In this document: positions 1 to 10,971 of the stretch, one piece after another
How positions within the stretch are numbered: the first letter of the stretch is position 1
Layout: the number at the start of each line of letters is the position of its first letter
Source of the DNA: a virus
Lineage: Duplodnaviria; Heunggongvirae; Uroviricota; Caudoviricetes
DNA: 15,551 bases
Virus record (IMG/VR): IMGVR_UViG_2675903575_000009
Span: 1 to 15,551 of that record
Direction: 5' to 3' (one strand)
The notes under the pieces: generated by a model
Database searches by the model: none
What the model was told of the DNA's origin: nothing
The model's input: only the letters and a program-made list of their open reading frames with translations
Made by a program: the position numbers and the translations under genes

Positions 1-723
1 TTACGGGGTAATGCCAACCGCTGCCGCCACTTTGTCGCCACTAGTGCTTTGTTTTTCGAATTCATCTAAGGCTCTTTCAACATCAGAAAGATACTCTTTG
101 AATGAGTTCAAGATCATGCTTAACGAGCCCCCCATAAATAGGACCTGTTTTCCATCTTTTTTAAAAAAATCAGGATATTTTTCTATAAGTTCAATAATGC
201 TTTTAATATTTTGCCCATCGTTTTCTAAGTATTTTGCATCATTATGCGCACAACTGTTTCTTAATTTTGTTATTTTTTTGATATTCGAATAGTGGGATGT
301 TGACTTCATCCCTATCATTTTTTTGATAAATAGATGGCTCCTCTCAAATCCACTTCCTTTGAGATCTGAAACATTTATAGGAGAATGATGTCTATTAGCA
401 AAGTTGTTACAGAATTTTTCTATTTCGTGTTCAAAAATTCCGAATATAGTTAAGAATACTGACCTGCGGATAATACTTGGGTAGTATTCTAAAAACATTT
501 CATCGAGATCTAGCGATGAGCTGGTGAGTCCCATGTAATGATCAATTGACTGATATACACCATCTTCCGGAGATATTTCAATTATATATTCTTCAGGTCC
601 TTTGTCTTTATATTCTGCTATGCCCTTAGCGATTGATGATTCGCTATGAGTGATTAACGTCTCGATAATATCAAATGTTAAGGAGAAGTCGAATATTGGG
701 AATTGAAACAAAAACTTAACCAT
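1..723 (-). CDS. Hypothetical AT-rich cargo protein immediately downstream of int; contains an R-x4-H motif (RNSCAH) reminiscent of HEPN-type RNase/abortive-infection proteins
   Basis: Six-frame ORF 1..756 (251 aa) with stop at 1-3; I prefer the internal Met at 723 (weak AAGG about 9 nt upstream) over 756 (no RBS). Markedly AT-rich compared with the neighbouring int. Motif KLRNSCAHN fits the Rx4-6H HEPN signature, but one short motif is weak evidence. Confidence 0.5.
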   Translation of the reverse strand: MVKFLFQFPIFDFSLTFDIIETLITHSESSIAKGIAEYKDKGPEEYIIEISPEDGVYQSIDHYMGLTSSSLDLDEMFLEYYPSIIRRSVFLTIFGIFEHEIEKFCNNFANRHHSPINVSDLKGSGFERSHLFIKKMIGMKSTSHYSNIKKITKLRNSCAHNDAKYLENDGQNIKSIIELIEKYPDFFKKDGKQVLFMGGSLSMILNSFKEYLSDVERALDEFEKQSTSGDKVAAAVGITP

Positions 724-733
724 GCTTGAACCT

Positions 734-1765
734 TTAAGAATCTGATTTAGTAACATCCAAAGTTGCTAGTGGATTGAAACGAAGAGCTGTCTCTAAGTGA
801 TCAGGTGATAGATGAGCATAACGCATAGTCATTTTTATGTCGTGATGTCCGAGGATTTTTTGCAAAGCAAGGATGTTTCCACCCGACATCATGAAATGCG
901 CCGCAAACGTATGACGCAGAACGTGTGTAAGTTGACCGCGAGGGAGCACGATAGACGTTTTTTCCATCACGGATAAAAATTGAAAATAGCAGTCTGTGAA
1001 GAAATTGAACCCATCAAGCGCCATGATCTCTTCATAAAGCTCTTTACTGATAGGGATGCTTCTGTTTTTCTTCCCCTTCGTTCTTACAAAGGTAATTCGG
1101 TATTTGGTCACCTGTGATCGGGTAAGGTTTATTGCTTCTCGCCAGCGTGCGCCTGTGCTTAAGCATATCTTGACTACCAGTGCCAGAATTGGGTCCTGAC
1201 GTTTGCAATCATCCAGCAGTTCAACAATCTGCTCATGGGTAAGCCATGCCATCTCTTTTTCTGCGATGGTGAATTTTCGCATGTTCTCCAGTGGGTTTGG
1301 ATACGACCATTCGCCCAGGCGGGATAGTTCGCTAAAAACACTACTTAGATAGCTTTGCTCCAGGTTAATGGTGACCGGGCTGGCCCCTTTCTTCCATTTC
1401 TCGCTGAAGTAGATCTCACCTGTCAGTCGTTTATCTCGATAATGGGCAAACATTTTAGATGTGAGATCGGTTGCAAGGGGATTGCCCAGAGCGTCAACCA
1501 TCAGCAGCAATTTGTCATAGACATGCTGCCCAGCAGTCAGAGATTTACCATGTAGTTTGAACCATAGCTCAACCACGTCTTTCAGGGTTCGACGATCTAC
1601 TGATTCGCCCAGCCAGGGCTTTGCTTCGGTTTCTTCCATCGTGTGACGCTCAAAAGCCAGTGCTTCGCCTTTGGTGGCGAATTGTTTACGCACACGACGC
1701 CCACTACGTCCGGCGGGGTAACATTCGCAAAGCCATTTTCCTGTGGTGAGTTTTCGTACTGCCAT
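734..1765 (-). CDS. int: Tyrosine site-specific integrase (P2 Int-like)
   Basis: N-terminus MAVRKLTTGKW...RSGRRVRKQFATKGEALAFE closely parallels the P2 Int N-terminus; C-terminal catalytic region HVLRHTFAAHFMMSGGNILALQKILGHHDIKMTMRYAH carries the R...HxxR...Y tyrosine recombinase signature. The ORF track extends to 1843, but the conserved start is the Met at 1765, preceded by GGAGGG (1774-1779 on the minus strand). Confidence 0.92.
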   Translation of the reverse strand: MAVRKLTTGKWLCECYPAGRSGRRVRKQFATKGEALAFERHTMEETEAKPWLGESVDRRTLKDVVELWFKLHGKSLTAGQHVYDKLLLMVDALGNPLATDLTSKMFAHYRDKRLTGEIYFSEKWKKGASPVTINLEQSYLSSVFSELSRLGEWSYPNPLENMRKFTIAEKEMAWLTHEQIVELLDDCKRQDPILALVVKICLSTGARWREAINLTRSQVTKYRITFVRTKGKKNRSIPISKELYEEIMALDGFNFFTDCYFQFLSVMEKTSIVLPRGQLTHVLRHTFAAHFMMSGGNILALQKILGHHDIKMTMRYAHLSPDHLETALRFNPLATLDVTKSDS

Positions 1766-1794
1766 AAAAAATGCCCTCCAATAGAGAGTATTTT

Positions 1795-1818
1795 TACTGT
1801 ATGTATAACCAGTGTCAA
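1795..1818 (-). promoter_or_regulatory. Candidate LexA (SOS) box overlapping a sigma70-like promoter directly upstream of int
   Basis: TACTGTATGTATAACCAGTG (1795-1814) fits CTGT-N8-(A/C)CAG with an AT-rich spacer; the CCAG right half is the variant I recall from the uvrB box. On the minus strand a perfect TTGACA -35 (1813-1818) lies 17 nt from AAAAAT (1790-1795), so the box covers the spacer. 17 of 20 positions match the box at 8016-8035. Confidence 0.4.
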
Positions 1819-1951
1819 TGTATGAAATCTTGCGACCATACATCTCACTGAAGCCATAATGAAGTTGGCTATTTTTTGCTATGTGAGTATGTGACTTTTG
1901 CGGTTAGCCTGCGGCTCATTGTTATATTAGGCGCAGATATAAAAGCAAAAA

Positions 1952-2143
1952 TTATCGCGAGTTTTTAGTACAGATTTTTTTTGATTTACTAATAGTTCCA
2001 TCATTGCAAACGAACTTTCCATCGGAGGTACAGTGAGAGACACCTCCCTTTTTCCCAGAACAAGGATAATTTTTAGCATAGGTAGTTAGTGGGTTTAATA
2101 ACAAAGAGCATGATAAAACCACAAAAAATACCTTACCAAGCAT
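1952..2143 (-). CDS. Small (63 aa) AT-rich secreted or lipoprotein-like Cys-containing protein between cI and int
   Basis: Strong RBS GGAGG about 7 nt upstream of ATG (minus strand, around 2150-2155); N-terminus [23 protein letters not shown] looks like a signal peptide (possible lipobox VLSC); the mature part has 4 Cys. AT-rich relative to the flanking cI and int. Confidence 0.5.
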
Positions 2144-2158
2144 AGTTTCCTCCCGGTA

Positions 2159-2728
2159 TTACCTAACGTACTTAATTGTTAAACTTATAATTTTTCCAAT
2201 TATTTCAACATCTTCTATCTTGCACTCGAAGGCTCTGTTTCCACCTTCAACGAAGATTCTTCCACCGGGTAAACGAGTAATGTCGCGGATTGTTATTTCG
2301 CCATCAATACTTATTACCCATTTACCATCACGTATATCATCAAATTCTTTATCACAAATAAATTCAGAATTGTTATCTGTGATGACAAAAGGTTTTTTAA
2401 ACGTAGAGGGTAGAAATCCCTTATCAAAAATATAAAAACCGTCTTCACGCAAGGCACCATCAGATAATACATATTTAGCAACTTCCATCGTATTTGTATT
2501 ACCTGAAGTTTGCTTTGAACCATGTCCAGTTGTGAGCCAATTAAGCGAGGTGCCCGTTTCAAGGGCGCACTGGATTACCCATTCTGCTGGGAATGAGTCA
2601 CGCATGTAGCGTGTAGCGAGTGTACTTTTAGAGATTCCTAAATGATCGCACAACGCCTGTCGAGTTTTGAATCCATAAGCTTCTACCATGCGCTCTATAG
2701 CGCCTCGTCCGCCTTTCTCCAAATTCAT
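2159..2728 (-). CDS. cI: Phage CI-type immunity repressor (186 CI-like, HTH N-terminal domain)
   Basis: About 190 aa, the size I recall for 186 CI rather than the roughly 99-aa P2 C; N-terminal HTH-like segment KTRQALCDHLGISKSTLATRYMR; divergent from the cox/apl-like early operon. Start taken as ATG 2726-2728 (GGAG 5 nt upstream); the ORF track begins two codons earlier at a GTG. Confidence 0.8.
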   Translation of the reverse strand: MNLEKGGRGAIERMVEAYGFKTRQALCDHLGISKSTLATRYMRDSFPAEWVIQCALETGTSLNWLTTGHGSKQTSGNTNTMEVAKYVLSDGALREDGFYIFDKGFLPSTFKKPFVITDNNSEFICDKEFDDIRDGKWVISIDGEITIRDITRLPGGRIFVEGGNRAFECKIEDVEIIGKIISLTIKYVR

Positions 2729-2752
2729 GGTCACTCCAAGTGAACTTTTATC

Positions 2753-2781
2753 TTGACGATTTCATCGTGCGATCGTATGTT
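2753..2781 (+). promoter_or_regulatory. Candidate early lytic promoter (pR/Pe-like) with overlapping operator-like palindromes
   Basis: TTGACG (2753-2758), 17-nt spacer, TATGTT (2776-2781), about 70 nt upstream of the cox/apl-like start. The spacer holds the palindrome ACGAT-TTC-ATCGT (2756-2768) and CGATCG (2771-2776); a related ACGAtccgtatTCGT lies at 2803-2817. Confidence 0.4.
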
Positions 2782-2853: not shown

Positions 2854-3075
2854 ATGAGACCTAACATTTCAATCACTCTTACCACGCCTCATGTGACTAT
2901 TGAACGCTATAGCGAGCTGACAGGACTGTCCATCGATACCATCAATGACATGTTGGCTGATGGACGCCTTATCCGTCACCGTTTGCGCAAAGATAAAAAA
3001 CGCGAAAAAGTGATGATCAACATAGCAGCCATGACCGTTGATGCGCTTTCAGAATGCAATCTAAACCTTAATTAG
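2854..3075 (+). CDS. Cox/Apl-like excisionase and transcriptional regulator (small HTH protein, first gene of early operon)
   Basis: 73 aa, divergent from cI, GAGGA RBS 10 nt upstream; sequence [28 protein letters not shown] resembles the P2 Cox / 186 Apl HTH region; position is diagnostic in P2/186 phages. Confidence 0.65.
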
Positions 3076-3101: not shown

Positions 3102-3617
3102 TTGACCATGTTTGATTACCAAGTTTCCAAACATCCACATTTTGATGAAGCCTGTCGTGCATTTGCACTGCGCCACAATCTGGTGCAACTGGCAGAACGT
3201 GCAGGCATGAATGTGCAGATTCTGCGGAACAAGCTGAACCCAGCTCAGCCTCATTTATTAACCGCACCAGAAATCTGGCTGCTTACCGATCTGACTGAAG
3301 ATTCAACGCTGGTAGATGGTTTTCTGGCACAGATTCATTGTCTGCCATGTGTACCGATTAATGAGGTGGCAAAAGAGAAACTGCCACATTACGTCATGAG
3401 TGCAACCGCAGAGATCGGGCGTGTTGCTGCAGGTGCGGTATCTGGCGATGTAAAAACCTGTGCCGGTCGTCGTGATGCCATCAGCAGCATTAACTCTGTA
3501 ACACGACTGATGGCGCTGGCGGCTGTTTCATTGCAGGCCCGTTTACAGGCTAATCCTGCGATGGCAAGTGCAGTTGATACTGTAACTGGCCTCGGTGCGT
3601 CATTCGGTTTGCTGTGA
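3102..3617 (+). CDS. cII: 186 CII-like lysogeny-establishment regulator
   Basis: 171 aa (186 CII is about 169 aa as I recall) immediately after apl/cox; HTH-like segment [19 protein letters not shown] near the N-terminus. Confidence 0.7.
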
Positions 3618-8015: not shown

Positions 8016-8035
8016 TACTGTAAATATAAACAGTG
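8016..8035. promoter_or_regulatory. LexA (SOS) box upstream of the tum/dinI-like module
   Basis: TACTGTAAATATAAACAGTG is a perfect CTGT-N8-ACAG with AT-rich spacer, about 40 nt upstream of ATG 8076, overlapping promoter-like hexamers (TTTACA 7993-7998, TATACT 8014-8019). Confidence 0.6.
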
Positions 8036-8075: not shown

Positions 8076-8264
8076 ATGCAGGACTATTTTTTGGAGTCTT
8101 TGAAGCTCCAGCGCATTGATTTTTTTCTTAAGCTTGTAGCGGCTAGTGAGTGTAGTGATGAAGAGAAGGGGCTGGCTCTGCAGTGGGTTTCTGAACTGAC
8201 AGATGAACTCATGGCAAAAATCAGAACCCACGAATACAACCGCTCAATGGATGTCATCAGCTGA
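8076..8264 (+). CDS. Hypothetical 62-aa protein, first gene of the LexA-controlled module (possible Tum N-terminal-equivalent)
   Basis: Perfect AGGAGG RBS 6-7 nt upstream of the ATG; directly downstream of the LexA box; stop 10 nt before the DinI-like start. Confidence 0.55.
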   Translation: MQDYFLESLKLQRIDFFLKLVAASECSDEEKGLALQWVSELTDELMAKIRTHEYNRSMDVIS

Positions 8265-8274
8265 GGTGACTTTT

Positions 8275-8508
8275 ATGCGCATTGAAATAATGATCGATAA
8301 AGAGCAGAAGATTAGCCAGTCTACACTGGACGCCCTTGAATCCGAGCTTTACCGCAATCTGCGCCCCCTGTATCCCAAAACGGTAATTCGTATCCGCAAA
8401 GGTAGCTCTAACGGTGTGGAACTTATCGGATTGCAACTGGACGAAGAAAGAAAACAAGTGATGAAAATTATGCAGAAGGTGTGGGAAGACGACAGCTGGC
8501 TGCATTAA
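8275..8508 (+). CDS. DinI-family protein (186 Tum C-terminal-like / DinI-like)
   Basis: 77 aa; MRIEIMIDKEQKISQSTLDALESEL...IMQKVWEDDSWL parallels E. coli DinI (MRIEVTIAK...ETWESADDWF) in length and conserved ends; GAGGTGA RBS 5 nt upstream. The ORF track start at 8203 is a 5' extension in the same frame. Confidence 0.8.
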   Translation: MRIEIMIDKEQKISQSTLDALESELYRNLRPLYPKTVIRIRKGSSNGVELIGLQLDEERKQVMKIMQKVWEDDSWLH

Positions 8509-8719
8509 GAAACGTTGCTGGCGTCTGAACCTGCTTCTGGCGTCAGCAAGGTTGAACCGCGAGCCTTGAGAGGCGTTAACCATAAGTAAAAAGACAGTAA
8601 TCACTTGATTATCTATCAGGGCGAGACCTATGCTGCACTTTTAGTTATAACTCATAATGTATTGAAATTATTATAATATATGTCATTCTTAAAATGTGTA
8701 TGCTTATCAAGGAGCAAGA

Positions 8720-9592
8720 ATGAAACGTGGCATTGTAGCTAATCCTAATGAAATGAGTTTTCATAGAAATAATAGTACGGTCTATCTTGGGGCAGGTTTA
8801 ACTGAGCAGGATATTAATTATTTCTGCTTTTACTGGGATGATGTGGTTATTCTAGATAGTGAAAATATTCACTCGATTGTGCCTAAAGAAAAAGAATTAT
8901 TAGATAATGGGGTATTACGTAGACCTATTATGAAACATGATGGGATGCTGAATATCCAAGACTTTCCATTTTTATATACGGAATTTCAGTTGCAGACATT
9001 GGATGAATTCAGGAAGAACGAGCCTGCTACTTATTGGCACTTTCATCAAACAGGGGAAAATTTAATATATGATAAAGAACAGAAAACGGCCCTTCAGTTG
9101 AGATTGGAGTTGTTTAATGTTCTGAGAATTCCTGATAAAGATGCTCATATAGAAGATATATTACGTTTTAAAGATGATTGTCAGGATGATCTTAATGCGT
9201 TACATGAGTACTTAGAAAAACTGTATACTGAAGTCCTTTATTCTAGAGACCCTAATCTAACGAGGGCTAAAAATTTTTCTTTATTACAAGAGGCTGTAGT
9301 TAATCTTGATAAAGCTATCGAAGGGAAATGGAGAAATCCTATCAGAATGGGAGTCAAAGCCAATCCAGAAGTAGATGGTGGGCAGGTTCTGGAATTTTTA
9401 AAACCGTTGTACCATGCTGCTATTGCTGGTTATTCAGGCGGTATTATTCCCGGTATGGTTACAGCCTTGGCAACCGCAATTCCAAGTTTTATAAAATTCC
9501 AACCAGAATGGGTGGGCTTTAGAGATAAGGGGCCTAAAGAATTAGCTTATCTTACCAAAGCAACGCATAAGGGGTTGATTAAGAGAGCTTAA
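8720..9592 (+). CDS. Hypothetical AT-rich accessory protein (290 aa) with a C-terminal hydrophobic segment; candidate anti-phage or abortive-infection gene
   Basis: ORF 8696..9592; preferred start ATG 8720 with GGAG about 6 nt upstream. Strongly AT-rich against the GC-richer phage backbone; no family recognised by eye; C-terminal AAIAGYSGGIIPGMVTALATAIPSFI looks like a membrane helix. Location between A/tum and cos corresponds to the P2 tin/old accessory locus. Confidence 0.6.
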   Translation: MKRGIVANPNEMSFHRNNSTVYLGAGLTEQDINYFCFYWDDVVILDSENIHSIVPKEKELLDNGVLRRPIMKHDGMLNIQDFPFLYTEFQLQTLDEFRKNEPATYWHFHQTGENLIYDKEQKTALQLRLELFNVLRIPDKDAHIEDILRFKDDCQDDLNALHEYLEKLYTEVLYSRDPNLTRAKNFSLLQEAVVNLDKAIEGKWRNPIRMGVKANPEVDGGQVLEFLKPLYHAAIAGYSGGIIPGMVTALATAIPSFIKFQPEWVGFRDKGPKELAYLTKATHKGLIKRA

Positions 9593-9909: not shown

Positions 9910-10971
9910 ATGCTTAAAACAAATAAGGTATTTATTGACACACAAACGTACGTAAAGGCTGGTCTTCATTTTGAGGGGGTAGCATTTAAAGCTTTCCATG
10001 AATTATGTGCGAAAGGTGATTTAGTCTTAATTACAACTACAGTTGTAGAGAGAGAAGTAAAAGGTAAAATAGAGGAATCAATAAAGGATGCTCTGCAGGC
10101 TATAAACACAGTACAAAGAAAAGCTAGGCTTTTGAATAGTATTGATAATGGACCGCTCCATGGTTTTTTTCAGCAATTTAACGAACATGAAATTCACGAA
10201 GCAGCACAAAAAGTTTTTGATGATTTTTTGAAAGGATGTCACGCCAAATTAGCTACAATAGAAGTGATAGATCTTAATGAGGTTTTAGATAAATACTTTG
10301 GCAAAGAACCACCATTTGGGCAAAATAAGAAAAAAAGTGAGTTTCCTGATGCAATCAATTTAGCTGCGGTAGAGCGATTTGTTAATGATGAAGATGTGTA
10401 TATCATTTCTGAGGATAGTGACTTAAAAAATTATTGTGATGGTAAAAACAATCTTCATCAAATTGATTCACTTGATAAGTTTCTAGGTGAATACAATACG
10501 CATACAAACGAATTAAGTAATAAATTGATGCAGTTTATCGAAAGCAAACGTGAAGACATAAGAGCGGACGTAATTGCCCAACTCAATGATGCCGATGGAT
10601 ATAACGTTTCAACTTGGGAAGACGCTGAATTGGATTCATTTGAAGTCGTCAATATTGATGACTTTGAACCATCAATAATTAAGATTGACAATAATTATTG
10701 TCTAGCGACCTTCTCTGTTTCTGTAGATTTTGAAGTTACTGTTTCTGGTCCAGACTTTAATAATGGGTATTGGGATAGCGAAGATAAAGTAATGATTCCA
10801 ATGGAGACAACCACACGAACTGAAGTTCAAGAGATTAGTTTCGATATTGAAATTGAAGTTATGTATGAAATCGAGGATGGTGAATTAACAGATATCGCAT
10901 TTGATGTGAATATTGATAAGTTATCCCGAGGGATTGAGTTCTCTATTGAAGAAAATAATTTTGAATATTAA
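9910..10971 (+). CDS. Hypothetical AT-rich accessory protein (353 aa): possible PIN-like nuclease N-terminal domain plus highly acidic C-terminal domain; candidate anti-phage defence gene
   Basis: AGGA RBS 5 nt upstream of the ATG. The N-terminal ~175 aa have acidic residues spaced like PIN-domain metal ligands (VFIDTQ with D10; TTTVVEREV; FPDAINLAAVE; YIISEDSDL). The C-terminal ~150 aa are very D/E-rich with beta-like stretches. Strongly AT-rich; lies between cos and Q, where P2 has no gene. Confidence 0.6.
   Translation: MLKTNKVFIDTQTYVKAGLHFEGVAFKAFHELCAKGDLVLITTTVVEREVKGKIEESIKDALQAINTVQRKARLLNSIDNGPLHGFFQQFNEHEIHEAAQKVFDDFLKGCHAKLATIEVIDLNEVLDKYFGKEPPFGQNKKKSEFPDAINLAAVERFVNDEDVYIISEDSDLKNYCDGKNNLHQIDSLDKFLGEYNTHTNELSNKLMQFIESKREDIRADVIAQLNDADGYNVSTWEDAELDSFEVVNIDDFEPSIIKIDNNYCLATFSVSVDFEVTVSGPDFNNGYWDSEDKVMIPMETTTRTEVQEISFDIEIEVMYEIEDGELTDIAFDVNIDKLSRGIEFSIEENNFEY

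Follow-up and report, generated by a model that had tools for sequence, protein, structure and literature searches.

A YdcA-family gene behind the cI repressor gene of a 186-like prophage encodes a predicted Sec-exported periplasmic mini-protein

The YdcA-family gene and its prophage setting

The window, i.e. the whole stretch of 15,551 nucleotides that we analysed, is the left end of a P2-family, 186-like E. coli prophage, and it shares 99.9% identity with E. coli SHP24, in which the prophage adjoins rcdA. On the minus strand the order of genes is cI, the ORF studied here, int and a weakly HEPN/Abi-like ORF (1-756); the features around the ORF are listed in Table 1. The plus strand carries Cox/Apl-like, CII, Fil, DUF5347, DUF2732, TraR/DksA-like, Dam methylase and GpA replication genes, and after GpA it continues with DinI/Tum-like, DUF6236 and PIN_12 genes and then with the head genes Q, P and O. 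A pR-like promoter on this strand marks the switch region upstream of cI.

Table 1. Features at and around the YdcA-family ORF (positions in the window)
Feature	Position	Strand	Evidence
Tyrosine integrase gene int (annotated start)	734..1765	-	Pfam Int_N, Phage_integrase; phrog_1
Spacer between the ORF and int, 186 nt, structured	1766..1951	-	Terminator scan, RNA fold z-score, conservation
Promoter-like TTGACA-17-AAAAAT with LexA-box-like palindrome ACTG-N10-CAGT (1796-1813) in its spacer	1790..1818	-	Promoter/pattern scan
YdcA-family ORF, 63 aa + stop	1952..2143	-	ORF calling, NF007463, phrog_6000, RefSeq, dN << dS
Predicted mature 40-aa peptide	1955..2074	-	Composition, alignments, AlphaFold2
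Predicted Sec signal peptide (signal peptidase I type), residues 1-23, cleavage after T-Y-A	2075..2143	-	Hydropathy layout, conserved Ala at -1
Shine-Dalgarno sequence GGGAGG	2149..2154	-	Read from sequence; 5 nt before ATG
186-type CI repressor gene cI (RefSeq start 2728)	2159..2734	-	Pfam Phage_CI_repr 2.8e-33, Phage_CI_C 2e-28
pR-like promoter facing the Cox/Apl-like gene (2854-3075) and the cII-like gene (3102-3617)	2753..2781	+	Promoter scan, Pfam/PHROGs

The ORF runs from ATG to TAA over 63 codons. The original prediction described it as AT-rich and as having a strong ribosome binding site, and both descriptions hold: its G+C content is 34.9% compared to 47.2% for the whole window, and the GGGAGG sequence stands at a spacing of 5 nt from the start codon. 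The gap between the cI stop codon and the ATG of the ORF is 15 nt, and 186 nt separate the end of the ORF from the start of int. The product belongs to a family that is already known, named and annotated on this gene, and that is uncharacterised. It scored 116.1 bits against the NCBIfam model NF007463 (curated cut-off 93; residues 5-63 aligned with positions 1-58 of the 58 in the model), it matched phrog_6000 in PHROGs (E=4.6e-34; annotated there as of unknown function) and it is identical to the RefSeq protein WP_001321204.1, which is named 'YdcA family protein'. A Pfam search of the product gave no significant match in a release that predates PF27300 ('YdcA'), the family to which homologues of the product are assigned in precomputed Pfam annotation. 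The UniRef name 'conjugal transfer protein' and the gene name 'ydcA' in the gonococcal genetic island were set aside, as they look like an automatic label and a positional name, respectively.

When the predicted mature part was compared with the E. coli HS allele, we counted 9 synonymous differences and 1 non-synonymous difference (dS 0.47, dN 0.011), and in comparisons with the Hafnia, Yersinia and second E. coli alleles dS was saturated and dN was 0.03-0.09. The ORF thus codes for a protein, because synonymous differences in the mature part far exceed non-synonymous ones. For the signal-peptide segment, dN was 0.65-1.2 against alleles outside its own E. coli lineage. These comparisons indicate strong purifying selection on the mature 40 aa and free divergence of the signal peptide. 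Together with the family assignments, a real, functional YdcA-family gene is firmly supported by the sequence data.

The 251-aa ORF at the prophage end downstream of int (1-756, minus strand) has weak HEPN (RiboL-PSP)/Abi-like matches and a match to phrog_21382, making it a candidate defence cargo gene; its slot varies by strain and holds other short ORFs in BL21 and HS. Between the replication/SOS region and the head genes lie the genes for the DUF6236 protein (8696-9592) and the PIN_12-domain protein (9910-10971), a position that we take to be that of the tin/old accessory locus of P2; PADLOC gave no match for either of the two proteins. In relatives, a KAP-family NTPase gene was observed between YdcA and int (loci L006-L009, 4198-5529), and a faint KAP-like protein or a DUF4917 protein is encoded after int (L012, 5651-7207; L013, 5315-6301). 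The variable cargo near int also includes ORFs of no recognised family. The BL21(DE3) prophage has a retron St85-family effector further along (L024, 7481 onward). The flanks of int look like a cargo hotspot, and YdcA adjoins cI throughout the relatives.

Predicted export and the mature peptide

A signal-peptide-like N-terminus and four cysteines in a mature part of about 40 aa had been proposed from the sequence, and we found both. In a heuristic assessment against the usual Sec layout, which has a positively charged n-region, 10-15 residues of hydrophobic h-region and small residues at -3 and -1, the N-terminus contains a lysine at position 4 (K4), a hydrophobic h-region from V5 to L16 with hydropathy values of up to 2.7, a proline (P18), and T21 and A23 at positions -3 and -1 of the predicted cleavage site. 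Two alignments, of 31 and 40 homologues, showed that the first 20-25 residues are hypervariable yet always hydrophobic, that at least 90% of the homologues have the Ala at -1, and that the conserved domain begins directly after it. A corresponding boundary was seen across the family, as the first YdcA domain begins at residues 20-29 in 136 of 186 proteins. The predicted mature peptide consists of 40 aa (4.26 kDa, pI 9.6, net charge about +6.8). Its cysteines are exactly four, C28, C38, C46 and C58; they are invariant across homologues, and two disulfides are expected to form from them in the periplasm. The conserved motif of the family is PCSGxKGG(V/I)xxC...F(V/I)CxDGxxSxSxxxC, and all its invariant columns are present in the window protein. 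AlphaFold2 predicted a short beta-hairpin core with a pLDDT of 88-91. We regard it as firmly supported by the layout of the sequence and its conservation that the product is a Sec-exported periplasmic mini-protein, predicted to be cleaved by signal peptidase I.

Could the product be a lipoprotein instead? The segment VLSC had been read as a possible lipobox, and this reading did not survive. We tested the patterns [LVI][ASTVI][GAS]C and PROSITE PS51257, with the Cys at about positions 15-35, and neither of them matched: the Cys is residue 12, and the segment that has to be free of charge contains K4. Moreover, Cys12 is confined to a subgroup of homologues, in which F, I or V occupies the position before it, and in most homologues this segment lacks a Cys altogether, while the Ala at -1 of the mature peptide (A23) is conserved as described above. 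That the product is not a lipoprotein is likewise firmly supported by these comparisons.

Linkage to cI and predicted transcription

Among 5426 complete E. coli genomes, the cI type of the window was present in 648 and the ORF in 654, i.e. in about 12% of the genomes and near one-to-one. About 1 in 8 complete E. coli genomes thus has the gene right behind a prophage repressor. The carriers include BL21(DE3) (with an identical protein), HS, ATCC 8739, NC101 and APEC O78; in E. coli HS the single place matching the ORF is inside a P2-like prophage. In IMG/VR, at least 534 viral contigs encode relatives of the product. None of the isolated coliphages had the module, as a megablast search of cI-ORF-int against 50,697 phage records matched only the 5' end of int.

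The order cI-YdcA-int recurs beyond this lineage: it is found with a second E. coli cI type (cI 71% identical), in Hafnia (60%), in Yersinia and Pectobacterium (34-36%) and in the Haemophilus phages HP2 and S2 (32%). In phage 186, by comparison, the ORF is absent, and cI and int overlap with nothing between them. The ORF together with its 186-nt spacer is therefore an insertion relative to 186, which agrees with its earlier description as a gene inserted between cI and int. Absent from 186, atypical in its G+C content and apparently placed for expression from the prophage, the ORF is by these sequence features an accessory gene of the moron type, and its physical coupling to cI is firmly supported. 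Where the identity of cI drops to 32-36%, mature YdcA is still about 70-90% identical. A selected benefit in the lysogenic state is implied, because YdcA stays with cI across repressors that have diverged this far, and the fact that the peptide is far better conserved than its repressor probably means that it has a conserved target in the host envelope.

The family as a whole is much wider than these prophages. A search with a YdcA profile yielded 435 clusters at 50% identity and 1628 clusters at 90% identity, with relatives in 226 species of Alpha-, Beta- and Gammaproteobacteria. Most members are chromosomal, stand-alone genes in varied contexts, and cI was nearby in only 8 of the best 80 species-level YdcA loci. 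The only neighbours that recur across genera are those of the prophages, cI upstream and int downstream; among the chromosomal YdcA genes we found no conserved neighbours beyond genus-level synteny. In Moraxella and Acinetobacter phages, YdcA homologues are located among or near tail genes.

Is the ORF internal to a transcription unit that runs from cI to int, as the original prediction had it? Its location between the two genes was correct. The proposed unit, however, is interrupted by a promoter-like site of int itself, which lies about 25 nt upstream of int, and a LexA-box-like palindrome, CACTGGTTATACATACAGTA, fills the spacer of this promoter and agrees with the consensus at 16 of 20 positions. 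The LexA pattern had three matches compared to 0.17 expected, and the same scan recovered the known LexA site of the p95 promoter of phage 186. In relatives from E. coli, Hafnia and Yersinia a similar box precedes int by about 50 nt (loci L006, 5561; L010, 5325; L012, 4220), and the one in Yersinia agrees with the consensus at 18 of 20 positions. In phage 186, where int overlaps cI, the scan found no LexA box upstream of int. The int gene is thus probably transcribed from its own, predicted SOS-controlled promoter. Because int has this putative LexA-box promoter, the ORF is best described as the promoter-distal, last gene of the cI (immunity) operon and not as a gene internal to a cI-int unit. 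A second LexA-box-like site, TACTGTAAATATAAACAGT, is located at 8017-8034 of the window, upstream of two ORFs (8076-8264, 62 aa, and 8203-8508, DinI/Tum-like); this site and the downstream ORFs are likely the counterpart of the p95 SOS operon of 186.

Co-transcription of cI and the ORF is the default inference because the gap between them is 15 nt and because, in the terminator scan, the minus strand showed no candidate terminator from cI up to the int promoter. Thus the ORF is probably co-expressed with cI in lysogens. In the relatives 17-49 nt separate cI from the YdcA gene or, in HP2, the two genes overlap at stop and start codon, and further genes on the same strand follow directly. A hairpin at 1898-1914 was considered as a terminator between the ORF and int and was rejected, as it depends on G-T pairs and exists on the plus strand only. 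The minus-strand spacer from 1835 to 1945 has a more stable fold than shuffled sequences (z-score -3.15); its long hairpin is imperfect and lacks a U-run behind it, and the structured spacer after the ORF is conserved in E. coli HS and BL21. In E. coli strain a7 cI and the YdcA ORF are separated by an inserted IS5-like element, ISKpn26, which leaves the ORF truncated at its 5' end (locus L027, 3194-4338), so an intact ORF is not needed to keep the prophage in this strain.

Possible function and comparison with known systems

What could a small periplasmic peptide encoded behind a prophage repressor do? The literature on the YdcA family, phrog_6000 and PF27300 yielded nothing functional, and the clues that we have come from the composition of the peptide, from fusion proteins and from a possible remote relative. 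The 30-residue core of the family has a mean charge of +3.4, and three positions (K9, K32 and K33) are Lys or Arg in 86-91% of the sequences, i.e. throughout the family. Among 37 longer family members that we scanned, 4 have the YdcA domain right after the signal peptide and fused to a secreted nuclease; these nucleases belong to three unrelated families (Endonuclease_NS in two proteins, SNase and PLD-like), and one further protein combining PF27300 and Endonuclease_NS was found beyond the 37. Other members have two or three tandem YdcA domains, and one family member has a VasL (type VI secretion) domain. The nuclease fusions are rare, and they could equally mean that the YdcA domain is a localisation or anchoring module.

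[quoted passage not shown] Dis2 was the best sequence-profile match in the PDB (E=8.2e-5), and in a Foldseek search of 350,542 chains it took ranks 1 and 2, with 34-38% identity over 32-38 columns. Dis2 has an N-terminal signal-like segment followed by small disulfide-stapled lobes with the motif C-S-K-MGGI-x-YC...VCNNG; its two lobes resemble each other, are pinned by disulfides and lie close to the outer membrane in the Dot/Icm core complex, and its predicted 'transmembrane helix' (residues 21-38) aligns with the YdcA signal peptide. The authors of the Dis2 structure described the protein as Legionellales-specific and without structural relatives; it is dispensable. From the profile and fold matches, Dis2 may be a tandem, divergent protein of the YdcA type, a remote homology that we consider borderline. 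A PDB search with the single sequence of a tandem homologue (P0081) returned nothing, and matches to LDL-receptor class A repeats (E about 0.01-0.03) were taken as a resemblance in the pattern of cysteines and not as homology.

The explanation that we favour is as follows. From the cI operon of the 186-like prophage, the YdcA precursor would be made alongside the repressor, i.e. in lysogens. After Sec export and cleavage by signal peptidase I, it would become a 40-aa basic periplasmic peptide with two disulfides, which might act near the outer membrane as a small cationic module that binds a polyanionic or envelope ligand, DNA being the first choice. In this way the lysogen could interfere with incoming foreign DNA or phage, an exclusion-type function. 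Taken as a whole (a YdcA-family protein, exported, encoded in the cI operon and acting as a cationic binder with an exclusion-type role), we judge this explanation to be on balance probable. The functional part of it, that a cationic periplasmic binder of DNA or of an envelope component gives the lysogen an exclusion-type benefit, we put forward as a tentative proposal, possible rather than probable; the idea about the ligand is inferred from the conserved basic positions, the nuclease fusions and the similarity to Dis2. Against the explanation we counted that the family is mostly chromosomal, that the host has its own ydcA, that none of the PADLOC defence models matched the product (and PHROGs gave only phrog_6000), and that strain a7 tolerates the IS element.

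Alternatively, the gene could serve lysogenic conversion for the fitness of the host and have nothing to do with other phages: the prophage copy would boost or replace chromosomal YdcA, perhaps under envelope stress or acid/organic-acid stress. Deletion of chromosomal ydcA was reported to make E. coli W sensitive to 300 mM 3-hydroxypropionate, and the same paper cites an acid-induced, YdcI-dependent expression of ydcA. The mainly chromosomal distribution of the family and the fact that phage and host copies share the whole motif are also consistent with a role in the host. However, the 3-hydroxypropionate phenotype comes from a single report without a mechanism, E. coli hosts already have ydcA, and the tight coupling to cI across genera is left unexplained. 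We therefore consider this alternative unlikely. If stress tolerance were nevertheless the benefit, the gene would be a simple case of lysogenic conversion.

A protein-binding role without any contact with DNA appears more doubtful still. Here the peptide would be an outer-membrane-proximal adaptor resembling a single Dis2 lobe, and it would dock on, modulate or block a type IV secretion system, a secretin or a phage receptor. That Dis2 ranked best in the PDB both by sequence profile and by Foldseek, that its lobes stand beside the outer membrane, and that one family member carries a VasL domain all point in this direction, but the homology itself is borderline, the dispensable Dis2 offers no role to transfer, and no partner is conserved beside the YdcA genes.

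It is very improbable that the product excludes superinfecting phages as a lipoprotein anchored via Cys12, in the manner of T5 Llp or phi80 Cor: the Cys does lie in a hydrophobic segment with a Ser at -1, and the position of the gene predicts expression in lysogens, but this Cys is too near the N-terminus and, as described above, K4, the failed lipobox patterns, the F, I or V at -1 in close homologues and the conserved Ala at -1 of the mature peptide all speak against an anchor. It is hardly credible that the product is a secreted cationic antimicrobial or bacteriocin-like peptide, or an arbitrium-like phage communication peptide, for although it is small, cationic, Cys-rich and predicted to be exported by Sec, and although its gene adjoins the lysis-lysogeny switch, it has no companion gene for immunity, export or a receptor, its orthologues are ordinary chromosomal genes in many Proteobacteria, its domain is also the N-terminal module of larger enzymes, and Sec alone delivers only to the periplasm.

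The explanation with an exported cationic binder can also be extended to the whole family. YdcA domains, including the lobes of Dis2, might be widespread, hitherto unrecognised outer-membrane-proximal modules of the periplasm that bind DNA or DNA-translocating machinery, and P2/186-like and HP2-like phages might have wired one of them to the repressor, thereby giving the lysogen an envelope block on superinfection, conjugation and transformation. This extension is speculative, and we would give it little credence at present. If it were true, it would define a kind of exclusion factor that is new and that is tied to the immunity operon. In the literature we found no report that the coupling to cI is tight and ancient, that an ORF was overlooked in HP2 and S2, that YdcA domains are fused to nucleases or that Dis2 may be related to the family. 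Concrete, testable hypotheses follow from the prophage setting, from the fusions with nucleases and from the possible relation to Dis2, and E. coli HS is a tractable system for this ORF: deletion and cured strains as well as lexA and tum mutants have been published for its P2-like prophage 'DuoHS', which we infer to be the HS prophage that carries the ORF.

Finally, we compared the gene and its product with known systems. The closest is E. coli YdcA itself (b1419; PF27300 and NCBIfam PRK10040 models), which belongs to the same family by curated HMM and shares a signal peptide followed by PCSGxKGG(V/I)SHC...FVCNDGxxSxSKKxC with the four Cys. It has been described (in a bioRxiv paper) as a protein of 57 aa with a signal sequence, predicted to be periplasmic and of unknown function. 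While ydcA of the K-12 type is chromosomal and located between trg and cybB, the window gene is in a prophage and joined to the cI operon; between the mature parts there are 16 non-synonymous differences (dN 0.21), the window copy ends in a KNSR tail, and the two signal peptides are unrelated. In the P2-family Haemophilus phages HP2 and S2, a 60-aa homologue with the same motif lies right after cI and before int. In HP2 it occupies positions 2486-2668 of the record (locus L001, 3420-3602), its ATG overlapping the cI stop codon, and the same arrangement is present in S2. GenBank has no annotation for this homologue. Between it and int lies another ORF that looks secreted, orf1(S), which begins with a signal-peptide-like segment.

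The placement of the gene resembles that of rexAB, which accompanies cI in lambda, of old, tin and fun in P2-family phages, and of orf97 in 186, which are likewise accessory genes placed for expression in lysogens, together with the immunity repressor or alongside it; the ORF is low in G+C relative to the phage. Their products are, however, cytoplasmic or membrane proteins with known exclusion phenotypes and no sequence relation to the ORF product, which is predicted to be a 40-aa periplasmic peptide. In their site of action, P1 Sim, T4 Sp, T5 Llp and phi80 Cor are closer, as these are exported, phage- or prophage-encoded proteins that act at the envelope, as the ORF product may do. Searches in PHROGs, Pfam and PADLOC detected no homology to any of the four; they are periplasmic or lipoprotein exclusion factors, whereas the ORF product is not a lipoprotein. 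By analogy, the ORF product could work like Sim, Sp, Llp and Cor, and if it does exclude foreign DNA, it would be a very small periplasmic type of prophage-encoded protection.
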